A stretch of DNA of 59,858 bases, from contig JBEKTP010000001.1 of NCBI GenBank assembly GCA_049515915.1, positions 72,855 to 132,712 on the forward strand. Direction: 5' to 3'. The notes under the pieces were generated by a model that saw only the letters and a program-made list of their open reading frames with translations, had not been told where the DNA came from and searched no databases. The DNA comes from Patescibacteria group bacterium (lineage in GTDB: Bacteria > Patescibacteriota > UBA1384 > UBA12157 > JAENIV01). The translations under genes and the position numbers were made by a program. This document shows, piece after piece, positions 1,233 to 23,581 of this stretch (position 1 is its first letter; every line of letters starts with the position of its first letter).

Positions 1233-1615
1233 TTTTGCTCCTTCCTCCGACTGAAACATCGGAGTACTATGAGCGCTGCAGACTTCTTGTATTACATTAA
1301 TAGGCTTGCGCTTTACTTTACCTCGAGTATAAATAACCCTCGAGGATAATACAAGATCTCCCTTGGTCATAAAAATACCATTCTTCACTATCTCGACACC
1401 CATATATTATTGAATCATTAAGTCTGCAAATCGCTTCTCCATGCACACGGAGGATCGCGCGGATTCAATAACCTTCGAGTATTCAAGCTAGCAAATGCTA
1501 CTTTCACCCTTCGCCTAGAAAGTCACCTTTCATTAGACTGTGATTTCGCTTTTTCCGGTTTGCAGGCCGGAAAGTTGGTTTCTCAACCAACTGGCATTTT
1601 TACGGCAAGGCGCCA
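718..1615 (-). mobile_element. group II (IIC-like) intron in 16S between E. coli C1397 and A1398
   Basis: exons join as GUACAC|ACCGCCCGUC; D1 closing helix CGUAAAAAUGCCA/UGGUAUUUUUAUG; EBS1 loop GUGUGCA (1448-1442) pairs with exon end UGUACAC; IIC-type D3 motif AAGUCUGCAGCGCUCAUAGUAC; D5 with CGC triad (756-791); D6 hairpin (720-754). Confidence 0.9.
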
Positions 1616-2032
1616 GTGTACAAGACTCGAGAACGTATTCACCGTGGTGTGCTGACCCACGATTACTAGCGATTCCAACTTCATGAGGGCGAGTTGCAGC
1701 CCTCAATCTGTACTGGGGTGGTTTTTGAGAGATTAGCTTAACGTTACCGTTTTGCGACTCTTTATATCCACCATTGTAGCACGTGTGTTGCCCAGGACGT
1801 AAGAGCCACGCTGATTTGACGTCATCTGCACCTTCCTCCGTATAAACTACGGCAGTCTCCTGTGAAAATTAACACAGAATACAGGTTGCGCTCGTTGGAC
1901 CACTTAAGGCCACACTCTACAGCACGAGCTGACGACAACCGTGCAGCACCTGTCTTAGGGTTCCGTTTCCGGCACGAGTCTATTTCTAGTCTCTTCCCTA
2001 GATGTCAAGTCCTGGTAAGGTTCTTCGCTTAT

Positions 2033-2067
<35 letters not shown>

Positions 2068-2070
2068 AGT

Positions 2071-2110
<40 letters not shown>

Positions 2111-2193
2111 TCCCAGGCGGCAGACTTAACGCGTTAGCTTCGCTACAAGAAGGGTCGATACTTCTGATAGCTAGTCTGCATCGTTTACGGCGT

Positions 2194-2227
<34 letters not shown>

Positions 2228-2874
2228 ACGCTTTCGCATCTGAGTGTCAGGATAACCTAGCAAGCTGCCTTCGCCATTGGTGTTCTTCCCGATATCAACG
2301 CATTTCACTGCTACACCGGGAATTCCGCTTGCCCCTGCTATCCTCAAAGATTTCCAGTATCGAACCCCGAACCGCAGTTGAGCTGCGGGCTTTGAAGTTC
2401 AACTTAGAAATCCACCTGCATGCGCTTTACGCCCAATAAATCCGGATAACGCTCGAGCCCTACGTATTACCGCTGCTGCTGGCACGTAGTTAGCAGGCTC
2501 TTATTCTTAGGGTACCGTCACAATCGTCCCCTAAAAAAGAAGTTTACACCCCGAGGGGCGTCTTCCTTCACGCGGCGTCGCTGCGTCAGACTGTCGTCCA
2601 TTGCGCAATATTCCCAACTGCTGCCACCCGTAGGTGTATGGGCCGTGTCTCAGTCCCATTGTGGCTGGTCAACCTCTCAGTCCAGCTACCCGTCGAAGCC
2701 TTGGTAGGCCATTACCCCACCAACAAGCTGATAGGAACAAGGCCGATCTTATCCCGCCGGAGCTTTACTCTTGCGAGACTATGGGACATTAACCCACCTT
2801 TCGGCGGGGTATTTCCCGGGATAAGGCACGTTCCTTGCTATTACTCACCCGTTCGCCACGCTCTTACGAGCGTA

Positions 2875-2932
<58 letters not shown>

Positions 2933-3038
2933 AAAATTGTTATGAGAATCTAGATTGCTCTAGATAAACATCTGACTTAGATTTCTTTTATTTCTAATCT
3001 TAAAGAAAGGAGTTTTTTTACTTCTATTACCATAGAAG

Positions 3039-3721: not shown

Positions 3722-3808
3722 TGGCCCCGGCGGGATTCGAACCCGCGATATCCGTCCCGGGTCACTGCTGTGGCCCAGTAGCCTTAGGCCAAACTAGGCG
3801 ACGGGGCC
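3722..3808 (-). tRNA. tRNA-like gene 1 (87 nt), anticodon undeterminable, no encoded CCA
   Basis: acceptor GGCCCCG/CGGGGCC+A, D arm GCCU/AGGC, T arm GCGGG-UUCGAAU-CCCGC; anticodon arm CUGGG/CCCGG encloses 12 nt (CCACAGCAGUGA); 10-nt variable region. Confidence 0.75.
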
Positions 3809-4585: not shown

Positions 4586-5206
4586 TTAACTTTTTATCAC
4601 TTGATCGACAATTCCATATTTCTTAGCCTCCGCGGCGGTCATATAGAAATCGCGGTCGGTGTCTTTTTCGATTTTGGCGATTGTCTGACCGGTATGTTTG
4701 GCTAAAACTTCATTAATCGCTTTTTTGATCCGTAAAATCTCGCGCGTTTGGATTTCGACGTCGGTCGCTTGGCCTTCGGCCCCGCCCATCACTTGATGAA
4801 TCATTACCCGCGCGTTCGGTAAAGCGTATCTTTTCCCCTTTGTGCCGGCCGCGAGCAATACCGCGGCGGCCGAAGCCGCTTGACCGATACAAATCGTTTC
4901 CACATCCGGTTTGATGTACTGAATCGTATCGTAGATCGCCATGCCCGCCGAAACCACCCCACCAGGTGAGTTGATATAAACGGAAATATCTTTTTTCGGG
5001 TCTTCCGATTCCAAAAACAAAAGTTGGGCCATAATCAAATTGGCGACATGGTCGTCAATCGGCCCACCCAAAAAGATAATCCGGTCAACCAAAAGCCGAC
5101 TATATATATCATAGGCGCGTTCACCAAACTGGGTTTTTTCCACCACCATCGGCACCAGATATTGATTGATAATTTCCTTTTTATTAAGAGAACTTTTTTC
5201 GTTCAT
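4586..5206 (-). CDS. clpP: ATP-dependent Clp protease proteolytic subunit
   Basis: [30 protein letters not shown] motifs. Confidence 0.98.
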
Positions 5207-5251: not shown

Positions 5252-6117
5252 ATCAGAAAAGAACGATAAGTATCCTTGAGAGTCTTTTCTAAACTGATCT
5301 TTGGCTGCCAGCCGAGTTTTTTAATTTTAGTGCTATTGACGCAATTTTTAGTGATGTCTGACAGCCTTATCCGTTTTAGGTCAGGTGCGGTTTTAATTTT
5401 CTTTTTCGAGATGGCGATGATCTTTTTTAAAACTGATTTCATCGAGACCGGATGACCAGGACCGATATTATAGAACTCGCCGGTTTTTCCCTTTTGCATC
5501 ACCATTTTGTAAGCTCGCACGCAATCGCGAACATCGAACAGATCTCTTTTAGTCTCCAGGTTGCCGACCGCGATTTCGCCGTTATCTTTGGTAGCCGCAA
5601 TTTCAAAACAAAAATCCGGCACGGCAAAACCAGGTTTCTGACCCGGACCAGTGTGGTTGGTGGCCCGCGTAATCACAATTTCAAGATTATCGCCATGATA
5701 CTTTTTTGCTTCGACTTCCATCTTTAATTTGCTTTGGTCGTAAAAACTTCCAGGTGAGGTCGCGGCATTTTCTTTGGCACAAGTCGACGTATTACCATAA
5801 ACATAAGCGGTGGAGGCCAGCAACACTTTGCAGGGTTTTCCGATTTCCTTTAAGGCCCTCAAAATATTGAGAGTGCCCTCGACATTAACTTCAAAAATTA
5901 AATTCTTATCTTTGCCGGCCCCGGAAGCAAACCCAGCTAGATGATAAACTTGATCCGGTTTAATTTTTTTTAAGTAAATTTTTACTTGTGAAAATTTGGT
6001 GATGTCGGCTTGCGGACGATCGAGCCGGTAAATTTTATCTTGACTACGCCCTAAAAGTTCAACTAAATATTTACCAACAAAACCGTCAGAACCAGTGACA
6101 ACAATTTTCTTTTTCAT
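5248..6117 (-). CDS. NAD-dependent epimerase/reductase, GDP-4-keto-6-deoxymannose reductase (Rmd)-like
   Basis: TGSDGFVG, YxxSK, NHTGPGQ, RDLFDVRD; adjacent to gmd. Confidence 0.8.
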   Translation of the reverse strand: MKKKIVVTGSDGFVGKYLVELLGRSQDKIYRLDRPQADITKFSQVKIYLKKIKPDQVYHLAGFASGAGKDKNLIFEVNVEGTLNILRALKEIGKPCKVLLASTAYVYGNTSTCAKENAATSPGSFYDQSKLKMEVEAKKYHGDNLEIVITRATNHTGPGQKPGFAVPDFCFEIAATKDNGEIAVGNLETKRDLFDVRDCVRAYKMVMQKGKTGEFYNIGPGHPVSMKSVLKKIIAISKKKIKTAPDLKRIRLSDITKNCVNSTKIKKLGWQPKISLEKTLKDTYRSFLI

Positions 6118-6118
6118 C

Positions 6119-7159
6119 TCAAATCCTAAAATTTTGCAGGGTGTCTAAATCTCTTTTTACTCGAGTAGTCAGATGATTTCTCACGTCACTTTCAACCATC
6201 ATTTTAACCAGCTCTTCAAAATCTACTTTCGACTTCCAGCCCAGTTTCTTTTGGGCCTTCGTTGGATCAGCTCTTAAATCCATCACCTCGGCCGGTCTCA
6301 TAAACTTCTGGTCGATTTTAACATATTTTTGCCAGTGATCGATATCAGCCGCCTTAAAAGCAGCGATGACAAAATCTTTAATCGTATGATTGACGCCGGT
6401 CCCCACCACGTAATCATCAGGCTTGTCTTGTTGTAAGATCAACCACATCGCTTCGACATAATCGCCGGCAAAGCCCCAATCTCTCTTAGCCTCTAAAGTA
6501 CCGAGCCTTAACTCCTTAGCCAAACCTAACTTGATTTTGGCCACCCCATCGGTAATTTTTCGAGTGACAAATTCTAAGCCACGGCGTGGCGATTCGTGAT
6601 TAAATAAAATGCCGCTACAAGCAAAAAGGCCATAACTTTCTCGATAATTCACGGTGATATAGTGGCCAAAAACTTTTGAGACACCGTAAGGCGAGCGAGG
6701 ATAAAAACGGGTTTCTTCATTTTGCGGCGGTAAAGCCGCGCCAAACATCTCCGAAGAAGAAGCTTGATAAAACTTCGCTTTGGAACAAACCTGTCTCATC
6801 GCTTCTAAAACTCTTAACACCCCCAGACCGGTATATTCACCCGTGGAAAGCGGTTCGCTCCAAGAACCTTTGACAAAAGATTGGGCGGCTAAATTATAAA
6901 TTTCGTCCGGCTGAATTTCAGTCATAATACTAACCAGCGATGACTGATCCCCCAGATCGCCGTTGACAATATGAATCTGATCTAAAATATGAGCAACGCG
7001 TTCAAGATTTTGAGTGCTGGTCCGGCGAACCATTCCATAGACTTCATAGCCTTTGGAAAGTAAAAACTCGGCTAAATATGATCCATCTTGACCAGTTAGC
7101 CCCGTGATTAAAGCCCTTTTTTTCTTATTCGTCTCCCCTTTCCTTTGATTTTCGGGCAT
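6119..7159 (-). CDS. gmd: GDP-mannose 4,6-dehydratase
   Basis: [39 protein letters not shown]. Confidence 0.97.
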
Positions 7160-20612: not shown

Positions 20613-22571
20613 TTATCTAAGCCTCAATTTTTTAAGCTGAATAATCTCGTCACGCAAAATCGCCGCCCGCTCGAATTCTAAATTTTGAGCCGCTTTTTTC
20701 ATTTCGATTTCTTTAAAACGGATCGCCGCCGGCAAATCTTCGATTTTTTCTAAGTCAATAAATTCTGGGGTGACTTCGGGCCTGAGTTCATGATCGATAA
20801 TACTCTCGATCGTCTTTTGAATAGTTTTCGGTGTAATATGATGTTTTACATTAAATTTTATTTGTTTAGCCCGCCGGCGATTAGTTTCGTCAATCGCTCG
20901 TTTCATTGAGCCAGTCATATTATCGGCATACAAAATGACCATACCGCGAACATTTCGCGCTGCCCGGCCGATAGTTTGAACCAACGATACATCCGAGCGT
21001 AAAAATCCCTCTTTATCCGCGTCTAAAATTGCGACTAAGGAAACCTCCGGCAAATCCAAGCCTTCGCGCAATAAATTCACCCCGACCAAAACATCAAATT
21101 CACCTTTGCGCAAATTTTCCAAAATTCCCACTCGATCCAAAGTGTCAACTTCGCTATGCAGATATTCGGCACGCACGCCAATTTCTTTAAAATGGTCTGA
21201 AAGTTCTTCGGCCATTCTTTTTGTTAAAGTAGTAACTAAAATTCTCTCCTCCGCTTTGGCGCGTTTTTTGATTTCTTTGGTTAAATCATCGACTTGTCCT
21301 TCGATTGATCTTACTTCGACTTCTGGATCAACCAAACCGGTCGGTCGGATAATCTGCTCGACAATTTGTTTCGAATGTTCCCTCTCAAAGCTTGCTGGCG
21401 TCGCCGTGGTATAAATAACTTGATTTATTTTGGTCTGAAATTCCGGAAATTTTAACGGCCGGTTATCTCGAGCCGATGGTAAACGAAAACCATGTTCAAC
21501 CAGCGAATCTTTTCGCGATTTATCGCCCTCAAACATTCCCCGAAGCTGAGGAATAGTCACGTGTGATTCATCAATAATCATCAAAAAATCTTCGGGGAAA
21601 TAATCAATCAACGTATAAGGCGCTTGACCTTCTTTTCGGCCGGTCAAGTACCGCGAATAATTTTCAATTCCGGCGCAATAACCGATTTCACGAAGTAGCT
21701 CCAAGTCGTAACGCGTCCGTCGTCGCAGTCTCTCCGCCTCCACAAATTTCCCCCTTTTTTCAAAATAAGAAACCCGCTCTTTTAGTTCTTTTTCAATGGC
21801 CATAATCGATTTTTGCATCGTCGGTGATGTAACCACGAAATGCTTGGCGGGATAAATCATCAGTTTTTTTTCATCATAAAGTTTTCTCATCGTGACAGCC
21901 TCAAAAACCGTGATTTTAGTTAGCCAATCTTTCTCAATTTCGATCCGAATAATAACTTCTCGATCGGCCGGCATAATTTCAATTGTTCCGCCATGAACTC
22001 TAAATTTCCCGCGAGATAAAATTTCAGAGCGTTCAAAATACATTTCAACCAAACGATTAATAATATCCTCGCGCGCAATTTCCTCGCCCACCGCTAAATT
22101 TAAATGACTTTCGCGATAAACTTCCGGACTACCCAAACCATAGATACACGAAACCGAAGCGACGACAATCACATCGCGCCGCGCCAGTAACGCCTGGGTA
22201 GCGGCATGGCGCAACCGATCAATTTCTTCATTAATTTCAACATCTTTTTCAATATAGATATCAGTGTTCGGCATATAAGCTTCGGGTTGATAATAATCGT
22301 AGTAGGACACAAAATATTCGACGGCACTTTCCGGAAAAAAAGTGCGAAACTCAGAACAAAGCTGGGCCGCCAAAGTTTTATTGTGAGCGATAACTAAAGT
22401 CGGCTTTTGAACTTTTTCAATCACATTAGCAATGCTAAAAGTTTTACCCGAACCAGTCACACCCAATAAAGTCTGGTGTTTAAAACCTTTTTTGATACCA
22501 TCAACCAATTTCGATATCGCCGCCGGCTGATCCCCGGCCGGCTTGAATTTTGAGGAAATCTTAAAATCCAT
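20613..22571 (-). CDS. uvrB: excinuclease ABC subunit B
   Basis: GVTGSGKT, YYDYYQPEAY, DESH, QTIGRAARN, C-terminal UVR domain. Confidence 0.98.
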   Translation of the reverse strand: MDFKISSKFKPAGDQPAAISKLVDGIKKGFKHQTLLGVTGSGKTFSIANVIEKVQKPTLVIAHNKTLAAQLCSEFRTFFPESAVEYFVSYYDYYQPEAYMPNTDIYIEKDVEINEEIDRLRHAATQALLARRDVIVVASVSCIYGLGSPEVYRESHLNLAVGEEIAREDIINRLVEMYFERSEILSRGKFRVHGGTIEIMPADREVIIRIEIEKDWLTKITVFEAVTMRKLYDEKKLMIYPAKHFVVTSPTMQKSIMAIEKELKERVSYFEKRGKFVEAERLRRRTRYDLELLREIGYCAGIENYSRYLTGRKEGQAPYTLIDYFPEDFLMIIDESHVTIPQLRGMFEGDKSRKDSLVEHGFRLPSARDNRPLKFPEFQTKINQVIYTTATPASFEREHSKQIVEQIIRPTGLVDPEVEVRSIEGQVDDLTKEIKKRAKAEERILVTTLTKRMAEELSDHFKEIGVRAEYLHSEVDTLDRVGILENLRKGEFDVLVGVNLLREGLDLPEVSLVAILDADKEGFLRSDVSLVQTIGRAARNVRGMVILYADNMTGSMKRAIDETNRRRAKQIKFNVKHHITPKTIQKTIESIIDHELRPEVTPEFIDLEKIEDLPAAIRFKEIEMKKAAQNLEFERAAILRDEIIQLKKLRLR

Positions 22572-22627
22572 ATGGCGATATCATACCATATTTTTACAAA
22601 AAAATCTATTATTGATGAAATTAGTTC

Positions 22628-22646
22628 TAAGAATTAGAGATGGGGA
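22628..22646 (-). repeat. cassette 2 terminal helix, 3' arm
   Basis: UCCCCAUCUCUAAUUCUUA pairs with 23152-23170 (18/19). Confidence 0.8.
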
Positions 22647-22910
22647 GCGAGCCTCGCCGGCCGGCGGGGCTCGCGATAAGAGGATAAGAGAGAGGTGGGC
22701 GCCGGACCACAGCCAGTCTGACGCCCTCAAGATGGCACAAGTTGGGGTGGTGGGGGGGTGTCGACTTGAGCCTCCCTGATTTTAACCTCTCAAAGTTAGA
22801 GGGTGCGAGGGATATTTGGGTAGGGAGAACCCATTTATCCACAATGCCCTGGATCTTGGCTATTCACTCATTGACGCCGCTTCCCTTTTCGGACACTCGC
22901 ACCCAAATCA

Positions 22911-22986
22911 TGATAGGAACTTTCGGATTCGAACCGAAGAGCAACCATTAGCTACCGCTTGCTCTTCCATCCTAAGCTAAGTCCCT
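22911..22986 (-). tRNA. tRNA-like gene 2, degenerate anticodon arm, ends AUCA
   Basis: acceptor AGGGACU/AGUUCCU, D arm GCUU-AGGAUGGAA-GAGC, T arm UUCGG-UUCGAAU-CCGAA; anticodon loop UAGCUAA lacks U33; weak anticodon stem with G.G mismatch. Confidence 0.7.
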
Positions 22987-23035
22987 ACCCGACATAAGAG
23001 GAGAGGACCTTGCGGTCGAAACATCAGAGAGGCTT

Positions 23036-23158
23036 TTACCACAGGACGTAGCCCAAGTTACGCGTGACAAAAGGCCTGTCTGATTTAGTGTTTCCCATCA
23101 ACACGGACAAGGGCCTTGGGGCTAACCCGATCAGATAGCTCTCCTCACTTTTCCTCAT
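23036..23158 (-). CDS. possible 40-aa ORF within cassette 2 (MRKSEESYLIGLAPRP...)
   Basis: ATG lies inside the terminal-helix motif as in cassette 1, but no SD and it overlaps a structured domain. Confidence 0.2.
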   Translation of the reverse strand: MRKSEESYLIGLAPRPLSVLMGNTKSDRPFVTRNLGYVLW

Positions 23159-23170
23159 CTCTAATTCTCA
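23152..23170 (-). repeat. cassette 2 terminal helix, 5' arm
   Basis: UGAGAAUUAGAGAUGAGGA. Confidence 0.8.
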
Positions 23171-23193
23171 ACGTACGATATTGTAATATCACC

Positions 23194-23221
23194 ATTATAG
23201 TCTCAATTGGCGACGTGTCAA
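23194..23221 (-). promoter_or_regulatory. consensus promoter driving cassette 2
   Basis: TTGACA-16-TATAAT; GATATT-AC-AATATC palindrome just downstream; no substantial CDS before uvrB. Confidence 0.8.
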
Positions 23222-23283: not shown

Positions 23284-23520
23284 TTATTCGGTATCCACCG
23301 GGGGTTCGTCATCTCCCGGTTTATTTTCACCAGTCTCATCATCACTTTCGCCATCGGTTATTTCGGCTTCGGGATCTTTAACCGCCGGTGTTTCAAGACT
23401 TCGAGCCATCGGCGCTTCCTCGCCTTCGCCGGTTTTTTCCACCGCGCCGCCGGACGCATCTTGGGTGCCATCGTCATCATCGTCACTAACCAAATTCGCG
23501 TTTGGGTCTTGGTAATCCAT
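23284..23520 (-). CDS. small acidic, probably disordered protein (78 aa)
   Basis: AAGGAGG 5 nt before ATG 23520; very D/E-rich. Confidence 0.75.
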   Translation of the reverse strand: MDYQDPNANLVSDDDDDGTQDASGGAVEKTGEGEEAPMARSLETPAVKDPEAEITDGESDDETGENKPGDDEPPVDTE

Positions 23521-23581
23521 TTTAACCTCCTTGTTCACTATTTTGTTCTTACCAATTAAATTCACTCCCAAGCTTTCGAGA

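Follow-up and report, generated by a model that had tools for sequence, protein, structure and literature searches.

Positions 22914-22986 on the minus strand of a 59,858-nt stretch of a Patescibacteria group genome (contig JBEKTP010000001.1; the whole stretch is referred to here as the window) encode a 73-nt element that resembles a transfer RNA (tRNA). The organism belongs to Candidatus Berkelbacteria, in the candidate phyla radiation (CPR), from peat and wetland metagenomes, and its best named UvrB relatives are Berkelbacteria. The element lies within a unit of ~560 nt (about 23187 to 22627, minus strand) upstream of uvrB, a cassette whose two ends are clamped by a leader-trailer helix of 15-20 bp. 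An earlier reading of the sequence, the original prediction, took the element for a functional, switchable tRNA mimic. Our analysis favors a different view: the element is probably a tRNA-derived cargo module of the cassette, as opposed to a free-standing gene or a demonstrable switch, and the best reading is that of a decaying cargo tRNA locked into a hairpin.

The tRNA-like element and its predicted fold

The features that define the element are as follows.

22914-22986, minus strand: tRNA-like element (Rfam tRNA model, 34.9 bits; ARAGORN, 22912-22987; fold energies)
22959-22967, minus strand: 5′ strand of a 9-bp internal helix, GAAGAGCAA, displacing the D stem and anticodon stem in the predicted rod
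22936-22944, minus strand: 3′ strand of the same helix, UUGCUCUUC, overlapping the first three T-stem bases

On the minus strand, positions 22990-22911 read GGGUAGGGACUUAGCUUAGGAUGGAAGAGCAAGCGGUAGCUAAUGGUUGCUCUUCGGUUCGAAUCCGAAAGUUCCUAUCA. ARAGORN calls a 76-nt tRNA-Ser(GCT) at 22912-22987, one of two calls in the 60-kb window. The Rfam tRNA model did not report the element in a scan of the whole window or in a permissive scan of 1.1 kb, and the curated threshold was passed solely when 111 nt were searched alone (gathering threshold 29 bits, E=2.5e-6, 22914-22986 on the minus strand). The alignment spans only the acceptor, D arm and T arm, with the anticodon arm passed over as a local gap. Given this E value and the scarcity of ARAGORN calls, the resemblance to tRNA exceeds chance, and a tRNA-derived or tRNA-like identity is supported.

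The arms of the element are unequal in quality. The 7-bp acceptor (AGGGACU/AGUUCCU), the D arm (GCUU-AGGAUGGAA-GAGC, with GG) and the T arm (UUCGG-UUCGAAU-CCGAA, whose loop fits GTTCRANYC) are those expected of a tRNA, and the discriminator is A73. The anticodon arm, AGCGG-UAGCUAA-UGGUU, is degenerate: its stem would consist of A-U, G.U, C-G, a GxG mismatch and G.U, and its loop carries A33. Bacterial tRNA-Ser normally has a long variable arm and G73. The variable loop of the element is 4 nt, so that by its sequence it cannot be a normal tRNA-Ser. The encoded tail after the 73-nt cloverleaf is UCA, not CCA. The original prediction had listed these features, namely the AUCA end, a GCU anticodon lacking U33, the long variable arm and G73, an acceptor stem extendable to 10 bp and a downstream complement of the 5′ acceptor strand, and all are present on the minus strand where it had placed them; the acceptor extension reaches 10-11 bp (GGUAGGGACU(U)/(A)AGUUCCUAUC). 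Similarity to the tRNA model combined with lost decoding features and, as described below, presence and absence among close relatives is the pattern of a tRNA pseudogene or tRNA-derived relic.

A perfect 8-bp helix, AAGAGCAA/UUGCUCUU, had also been proposed to compete with the D arm. The helix exists, although its true length is 9 bp (GAAGAGCAA/UUGCUCUUC, 22967-22959 with 22944-22936). It couples the 3′ side of the D-loop and D-stem to the variable loop and the 5′ side of the T-stem, engaging the 3′ strand of the D-stem and three T-stem bases. A Watson-Crick helix this long arose in 1 of 2000 dinucleotide shuffles of the element core, and non-native helices in the other 14 distinct ARAGORN tRNAs, drawn from all DNA fetched for this study (the scope of all comparisons to fetched DNA below), were 4-6 bp. 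Because of these two controls, we regard the 9-bp helix as beyond chance.

Competition between the two folds is predicted to be one-sided. The cloverleaf has a computed energy of -14.0 kcal/mol on 80 nt and -15.1 kcal/mol on the 76 nt called by ARAGORN, and the minimum free energy (MFE) fold has -35.4 and -31.2 kcal/mol, respectively; the predicted advantage is thus 21 kcal/mol (80 nt) or 16.1 kcal/mol (76 nt). The MFE fold is a rod of 26 pairs, made up of the 11-bp acceptor, GGAU/GUUC, the 9-bp helix and 2 apical pairs, and the identical rod appears in the fold of the whole 561-nt region. In the ensemble, pair probabilities are 0.0 for the D- and T-stems and 0.92-1.0 for the 9-bp helix. Among the 15 tRNAs compared, the element has both the largest gap between cloverleaf and MFE and the weakest cloverleaf: the gap is 0-14 kcal/mol in the other 14, with a median over all 15 of 3.4 kcal/mol, and for the tRNAs carried by related cassettes it is 0-7 kcal/mol, their cloverleaves lying at -23 to -30 kcal/mol. 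In a functional tRNA the cloverleaf is expected to be the MFE fold or near it, and in the element it is not. The D stem is indeed replaced, as the original prediction had it, but the two states are not balanced, and with a gap of 16-21 kcal/mol in these models the element is hard to call a switch.

These properties bear on whether the element could be a genuine, non-canonical decoding tRNA, for example a short-arm tRNA-Ser(GCU) such as those of animal mitochondria, or a suppressor. The ARAGORN call, a covariance score above the gathering threshold and the standard 73-nt length speak for it. We nevertheless consider this the most improbable of the readings weighed here, as A33 replaces U33, the anticodon stem contains GxG, the long variable arm and G73 are missing, and no CCA is encoded, whereas cargo tRNAs of related cassettes (tRNA-Met and tRNA-Phe in L088, tRNA-Gln in L146) do encode it. 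Its cloverleaf is also half as stable as those of the real tRNAs compared, and the element is deleted in a relative with a 97%-identical UvrB.

Loss of the element in the closest relative

Comparison with that relative, represented by locus L161, rests on three further features.

22922-23123 (±2 nt), minus strand: 202-nt block absent from L161 in a pairwise alignment, with AG at both junctions
22818-22826, minus strand: UCCCUACCC, by sequence the exact complement of the 5′ acceptor strand GGGUAGGGA (22990-22982)
22758-22842, minus strand: 85-nt stretch without substitution relative to L161, where ~10 changes are expected at ~12% 4-fold-site divergence; the stretch was picked after looking

Divergence between the window and L161 at 4-fold sites is 11.9% in uvrB and 11.7% in the gene for an aminoacyl-tRNA synthetase (aaRS). 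The L161 cassette is otherwise 93% identical to that of the window, against ~12% neutral divergence, a sign of constraint, and the missing 202-nt block comprises most of the variable 5′ domain of the cassette and the entire tRNA-like element except its 3′ acceptor strand. L161 retains the acceptor remnant AGUCCCUAUCCA together with GUGAGGAGAG, the 5′ strand of the lost domain, now without a partner; the difference therefore arose by deletion in L161 and not by insertion in the window. By this alignment, the common ancestor had the element, and in the L161 lineage it is dispensable. Since the L161 remnant reads A-UCCA where the window has UCA, the ancestral element possibly had a proper CCA. 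No second copy of the 202-nt block was found in any fetched DNA, and there no other homologous cassette carries the tRNA-like element; the retention in close relatives expected of a functional tRNA is thus not seen.

The same block could be read the other way, as the scar of an integration event or an attachment site, with the block an insertion carrying a partial tRNA and with UCCCUACCC and GGGUAGGGA as remnants of repeats. tRNA genes are common integration targets, and the presence or absence of a discrete block with AG at both junctions would suit such an event. The acceptor remnant and the unpaired strand kept in L161 fit a deletion instead, the repeats are inverted and not direct, there is no integrase or other mobile gene nearby, and neither the fetched DNA (for a second copy of the block) nor phage and IMG/VR sequences gave a match. 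A scar is accordingly very improbable.

The downstream complement was central to the proposal of a switch, according to which the element would alternate between the cloverleaf, a form without a D stem and a long-range pairing with UCCCUACCC, for instance to gate processing or protein binding. The complement is real, and statistically weak: complementarity of at least 9 nt to some part of the element occurred in 226 of 2000 shuffles of the remaining cassette (11%); for its first 12 nt the count was 34 of 2000 (1.7%). Pairing of GGGUAGGGA with UCCCUACCC is used by the MFE fold of a 186-nt excerpt, but not by the centroid of the excerpt or by the full-length fold. In L161, moreover, UCCCUACCC is unchanged although the acceptor strand that would be its partner is deleted, and it is therefore not conserved for pairing with that strand. 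It lies in the 85-nt substitution-free stretch, the real partner of which could be the conserved GGGUUAG at 23125-23119. That stretch also contains the 3′ strand of the inner helix of the cassette and the motif GGUUAAAA; the C-rich tract adjoining it (22757-22742) is the most variable part.

A functional switchable mimic still gains something from the non-random competing helix and from the consensus quality of the T arm, D arm and acceptor. It is improbable in view of the dominance of the predicted rod, the fate of UCCCUACCC in L161 and the weakness of the long-range pairing; every other homologous cassette lacks the element, and elsewhere the same slot holds ordinary tRNAs, an open reading frame (ORF) or unrelated hairpins. 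A switch is without comparative support, because no homologue retains the element. The original prediction had itself named random decay in homologues, with no retention of the alternative helices, as evidence against a switch. The data come close to this, as none retains the helices since none retains the element; decay within a retained copy was not observed, and a rod helix unlikely to be due to chance had not been foreseen.

We propose that a once-functional cargo tRNA of the clamped cassette no longer decodes. Anticodon-stem pairing, U33 and one C of CCA would have been lost, while the acceptor, D and T arms stayed canonical, and positions that are free to vary in tRNAs (the variable loop, the T-stem sequence and the D-loop) would have come to spell the 9-bp helix that locks the rod. 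Once function was gone, refolding mutations may have been tolerated or even favored, and the element may have become one more hairpin insert of a large RNA, with at most a residual RNase P/RNase Z site. The rod was perhaps fixed for stopping tRNA-processing enzymes from cutting the cassette RNA.

Several observations weigh against a relic that merely decays. Pure random decay does not explain a helix found in 1 of 2000 shuffles, and for this reason it is likely that the rod, or the pair of rod and cloverleaf, has been under some selection; the consensus-like acceptor, D and T arms could likewise mean that the top half is still being selected. That a single sister lineage lost the element signifies dispensability there, not lack of function here. 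The energies are those of naked RNA without modifications; tertiary contacts, proteins and folding during transcription do not enter into them. The element is known from one lineage only, and the peat population of that lineage is clonal: the region is identical in at least 24 peat and wetland runs, and contigs from 4 of 24 such runs contain no variants in it. Searches for RNA-seq runs found none for the window cassette or for that of L088.

The clamped cassette and its relatives

On the minus strand, 712 nt separate the stop of a small acidic ORF at 23284 from the start of uvrB at 22571, and this gap contains the element. The principal features of the cassette in this gap are listed in the order of transcription.

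23194-23221, minus strand: cassette promoter TTGACA-16 nt-TATAAT, a 12/12 match to sigma-70 by sequence
23152-23171, minus strand: 5′ clamp strand UUGAGAAUUAGAGAUGAGGA, core GAAUUAGRRAUGAGG, paired with 22646-22627 in the MFE and centroid folds of 561 nt
22994-23148, minus strand: variable 5′ domain closed by GUGAGGAGAG/CUCUCCUCUUAU in the MFE fold, mostly missing in L161
22896-22904, minus strand: 5′ strand of the inner frame helix, GGGUGCGAG, its sequence kept in L162, L142, L083 and L146
22801-22809, minus strand: 3′ strand of the inner frame helix, CUCGCACCC, followed by the conserved GGUUAAAA motif at 22787-22780
22647-22674, minus strand: GC-rich hairpin GCGAGCC-CCGCCGGCCGGCG-AGGCUCGC, abutting the 3′ clamp strand
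22627-22646, minus strand: 3′ clamp strand UCCCCAUCUCUAAUUCUUAG, complementary to 23171-23152 (flank match at 22631-22648 on the plus strand)

Gene order at the locus is EF-Ts, RRF, RseP, class II aaRS, small ORF, gap, uvrB and uvrA; all seven ORFs were scanned against Pfam, and each matched as named except the small ORF, which had no match. A terminator-like hairpin follows the small ORF, then the promoter, from which the cassette transcript probably starts near 23187. Promoters, tRNAs and ORFs share the same orientation, hence the minus strand is taken as the transcribed one. Folding of the 561 nt that span about 23190-22630 gives z=-6.2, with the leader-trailer helix present. Inside the clamp, the fold has five parts. 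These are the 5′ domain, the rod of the tRNA-like element, a domain that GGGUGCGAG/CUCGCACCC closes, one more domain, and the GC-rich hairpin against the 3′ strand. The variable 5′ domain has no homologue in any fetched DNA. The GC content of a 2-kb window containing the cassette is not notably raised.

Two differences between the window and L161 lie outside the cassette. The small acidic, low-complexity ORF (23284-23571 on the minus strand of the window; 2250-2486 in L161) evolves much faster than its neighbors: it differs in 20 of 78 residues, and its nucleotide identity is 80%, as compared to 95-96% in uvrB and in the aaRS gene. In the window uvrA directly follows uvrB, and synteny with L161 is broken there: at 5323-7018, L161 has uvrB followed by genes for an Lcl_C-domain protein and a member of the bAvd family, in what looks like part of a diversity-generating retroelement.

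The family is defined here by pairing flanks, GAAUUAGRRAUGAGG at the 5′ end and CCUCAUYYCURAUUC at the 3′ end, with a GC-rich hairpin before the 3′ flank; in the window copy the flanks lie at 23167-23153 and 22645-22631 and the hairpin at 22674-22647. Synteny at uvrB is kept across Berkelbacteria with 73-97% UvrB identity, while the size of the gap varies. Of 14 distinct lineages, 8 have a homologous cassette at this locus (window/L081, L161, L162, L083, L088=L151, L142, L146=L159 and L145=L163); the other six (L082, L084, L086, L087, L164 and L165) have only a gap of 70-200 nt and no cassette. The presence of uvrB downstream of cassette copies derived from metagenomes was confirmed by tblastn. 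All eight lineages share a leader core, GAAUUAGRGAUGAGG, and a complementary trailer, CCUCAUYYCURAUUCUUA, and an exact 18-mer of the 5′ clamp strand is common to the window, L083 and L088. TTGACA and a -10-like hexamer spaced by 16-18 nt stand directly upstream of six more cassettes (L161, L162, L083, L088, L142 and L145); the L146 sequence begins at GACA, with the first T of TTGACA outside it.

Pairing of the flanks is conserved. Across nine distinct flank pairs, 95.6% of the cells of the clamp helix are paired, and sliding the partner strand as a control cuts this value to 30-50%. Two positions have changed on both sides (A-U to G-C and G-C to A-U), with GxU and AxC intermediates, and in the outer extension of the clamp the window and L161 pair via G.U wobbles (UUGAGAAU/AUUCUUAG) where the others have UUAAGAAU/AUUCUUAA. 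The GC-rich hairpin precedes the trailer in 10 of 11 listed copies, different in sequence in nearly every one, and is not evident in the minimal L145 cassette; between L083 and L146 it shows 2 compensatory pairs. The 265-nt 3′ modules of L083 and L146 yield a consensus of 56 pairs, 8 of them compensatory, with highly conserved unpaired stretches. When window-type and L083-type 3′ modules were compared with MAFFT and RNAalifold the alignment ended after ~35 nt, and structural homology of 3′ modules is claimed solely for the L083/L146 pair; what the window and L083 types are claimed to share is limited to their flanks and inner helix, the GGUUAAAA motif and the layout as a whole. Judged by this covariation, the cassette frame is an RNA structure. 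The structure has no match in Rfam 15.

The slot between the leader and the inner helix carries cargo, and its contents differ by lineage. In L088 it holds canonical, CCA-encoding tRNA-Met(CAT) and tRNA-Phe(GAA); in L146, a 21-aa ORF, a canonical and CCA-encoding tRNA-Gln(CTG), and a CCA-less tRNA of the Ala(TGC) type whose acceptor has a mismatch; in L083 and L145, the 21-aa ORF alone; and in L162 and L142, unrelated hairpin domains of 150-240 nt. In the window it holds the 150-nt domain and the tRNA-like element. The Ala(TGC)-type tRNA of L146 (771-841) scores 61 bits with the Rfam model; its acceptor mismatch is AxC, and it does not have the G3.U70 pair expected for alanine identity. The 21-aa ORF is hydrophobic and conserved (MGRWIAILLAILALILASGVR / ...AVLVVILAGGVR; L083 3484-3549 and equivalent positions in L145, L146, L159 and L163), starts 5-7 nt past a Shine-Dalgarno sequence (AAAGGGGG) at the end of the 5′ flank and is reminiscent of a type I toxin or leader peptide; it has no counterpart in the window cassette. 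Pfam and PHROGs searches with the small cargo ORFs returned nothing except a thioredoxin.

Two observations concern the surroundings of cassettes in relatives. In several of them (L083 3925-3975; near the L142 and L149 cassettes), cassettes are flanked by a repeated hairpin, AACGGCTCA-N5-TGAGCCGTT with GGTTTA after it, which resembles a repetitive extragenic palindromic element or a terminator. L082 has a Y1 transposase gene (PF01797) near uvrA.

The window contains a second, paralogous cassette at about 4445-3309 on the minus strand, between clpP (4586-5206) and the promoter of the 16S ribosomal RNA (rRNA) gene. Its flanks, GAAUUAGGAAUGAGG and CCUCAUUCCUGAUUC, are compensatory relative to those of the first cassette. 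Its small ORFs, 3-4 in number, have strong Shine-Dalgarno sequences and match nothing in Pfam or PHROGs. It also encodes an 87-nt type-II tRNA-like element at 3808-3722 on the minus strand (Rfam tRNA 39 bits) with an 8-nt anticodon loop, GGCCACAG, and without CCA. In L157 and L149, too, clpP is followed by orthologous cassettes; those of L149 are two in tandem (about 4483-3254, locus coordinates), and one of them contains a thioredoxin gene. The three clpP-locus tRNA-like elements (window, L149a and L149b) share the acceptor GGCCCCG/CGGGGCC-A and the T arm CGCGGGUUCGAWUCCCGCC, and their D and anticodon regions are completely different, which looks like selection on the top half only. Aberrant tRNAs with intact top halves thus recur as cargo of the family.

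The 16S rRNA gene beside the second cassette (Rfam match at 1571-2938, minus strand) is apparently interrupted near its 3′ end by an insertion of ~900 nt (region about 590-2938). The insertion encodes a LAGLIDADG-type ORF (...NPHYVAGFIDGEGCF...) and includes a match to the Rfam family group-II-D1D4-1 at 1238-1320 (40.6 bits), and the universal 3′ end of 16S rRNA (GTCGTAACAAGG...GGATCACCTCCTTTCT) is found at about 640-590.

The cargo of the family bears on the main rival to a locked relic, in which the element would be a working processing signal: RNase P and RNase Z would be drawn to its acceptor and T arm, in the way known from mascRNA in MALAT1, and the RNA would be cut into a 5′ piece and a 3′ module, perhaps held together by the leader-trailer helix. 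For both enzymes the acceptor/T minihelix is the main requirement, and in the window element the top half and D arm are at consensus when the anticodon arm is not. Genuine tRNAs, which need excision, occupy the same slot in L088 and L146, and the clpP-locus elements (window 3722-3808, L149a and L149b) retain the acceptor and T arm while differing in the middle. On the other side, the T arm is unformed in the predicted ensemble and the sister lineage does without the element. On balance a working signal is unlikely, though it deserves to be taken seriously.

Known RNAs and the biology of the cassette family

Like tRNA pseudogenes, the element is matched to the tRNA model by its acceptor, D and T arms, lacks CCA, U33 and the pairing of the anticodon stem, and is absent from the nearest relative; unlike them, it has a non-random 9-bp rod helix and sits in a conserved structured transcript rather than in neutral DNA. 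With mascRNA and menRNA (MALAT1, NEAT1) it shares a position within a longer non-coding transcript, an intact top half and an aberrant anticodon arm. Those RNAs are eukaryotic, conserved and experimentally known to be processed by RNase P and RNase Z, whereas the element of the window is not expected, from the folding predictions, to adopt a cloverleaf, and a sister lineage does without it. The only Rfam mascRNA match was sub-threshold (17.2 bits; gathering 42.5) and fell on a genuine tRNA of L146.

The original prediction had also suggested an elbow like that of YrlA or of transfer-messenger RNA (tmRNA). YrlA and the tRNA-like domain of tmRNA do combine acceptor and T-arm mimicry with the absence of normal anticodon function; the element differs in having no Rfam match to either at E<=10 and no tag reading frame, and its acceptor is not made by transcript ends. 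A tmRNA, standard or permuted, was rejected, as ARAGORN reported none and the gene order is not permuted. For YrlA, no rsr was found among the seven Pfam-scanned ORFs at the locus, to which that scan was limited. A decoding tRNA, a mimic of the tmRNA/YrlA type and an integration scar are each contradicted by the features tested.

At the level of the whole cassette, the closest architectural parallel is with GOLLD RNAs, which have a 3′ region that is conserved and a 5′ region that is less so, occur near tRNA islands and sometimes carry phage-encoded tRNAs in a linker (PMC12286853). The cassette likewise has conserved frame helices, a 3′ part conserved between close relatives and a variable 5′ slot that sometimes holds tRNAs. 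It differs from GOLLD and ROOL in being shorter (160-1140 nt), in residing on the chromosome at two fixed CPR loci and not in phage, and in that some copies contain ORFs; the likeness is architectural only, with no Rfam match to GOLLD, ROOL or another large RNA in the window cassette (E<=10) or in L146 (E<=5). The leader-trailer stems of rRNA and tRNA operons, which are RNase III substrates, resemble the clamp in that a long covarying helix joins the flanks of stable-RNA genes in one transcript. The cassette, in contrast, reuses a core of ~15 nt at two loci and across species and encloses ORFs and non-tRNA domains as well as tRNAs, and the flanks of the window's own 16S gene are unrelated to those of the cassette. 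As in the fold-back of hok-type type I toxin mRNAs (fbi/tac), transcript ends pair, and in L083, L145 and L146 the first cargo is the 21-aa hydrophobic ORF a few nucleotides after the leader; unlike those systems, no antisense RNA was identified, many cassettes have tRNAs or no ORF, and the window copy is without the conserved ORF.

Other identities were considered and rejected. A resemblance of GAGGAAAG to RNase P RNA has no Rfam match; GUCC-GAAA-GGAAGC, which resembles signal recognition particle RNA, is not conserved in L142 or L162 and likewise has no Rfam match; and a group I or II intron as the identity of the cassette finds no match either. A coding function for the 71-aa ORF at 22842-22627 is contradicted by a 1-nt indel that breaks it in L161, and the ATG within the 5′ flank opens no conserved frame. 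It is less likely that the flanks are terminal inverted repeats of a transposon, as there is no target-site duplication and no transposase; G.U pairs also outnumber AxC on the transcribed strand, and the copies occur at two orthologous loci and are not scattered.

Searches beyond the Berkelbacteria gave no further copies. Scanning GTDB genomes with UvrB produced matches of at most 62% identity in many phyla, none with the cassette RNA. Scans of viral contigs (IMG/VR) with cassette motifs yielded unrelated sequence and no true copy: the 5′-flank motif matched heptamer repeats (GGAATTA/GGAATGA) and chance coding sequence, the motifs of the inner helix and the 3′ flank gave no genuine copy, and the L168 match is coding. 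Phage GenBank searches with cassette DNA and one ORF of the second cassette returned nothing. In literature searches we met no account of such cassettes in CPR bacteria, and the cassette is apparently undescribed and without an Rfam counterpart.

In a broader proposal, the clamped units of Berkelbacteria would be a class of modular RNA cassettes not described before, which reside at two fixed loci, one upstream of uvrB and one downstream of clpP, and capture and exchange tRNAs, tRNA-like elements and small genes. Embedded tRNA modules would serve as functional handles for processing or display, as in GOLLD linkers, and the rod/cloverleaf of the window would be a gate for splitting by RNase P and RNase Z into two pieces held by the clamp. 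Taken as a whole, this proposal is doubtful, a speculation to be entertained rather than adopted.

Callers of tRNAs will list both "tRNAs" of the window (Ser-GCT and one of undetermined type) as genes, and neither looks competent for decoding. The tRNA-like element by itself is a modest finding, and the cassette family is the more interesting object, whose cargo turns over and takes in tRNAs both canonical and aberrant, small ORFs, a thioredoxin gene and a toxin-like peptide. Should the family prove real, CPR bacteria would have a large modular non-coding RNA with covalently embedded tRNAs, loosely parallel to GOLLD, and the cassettes would offer a natural series, from functional tRNA through aberrant tRNA and rod to deletion, for how embedded tRNAs are neutralized or lost.

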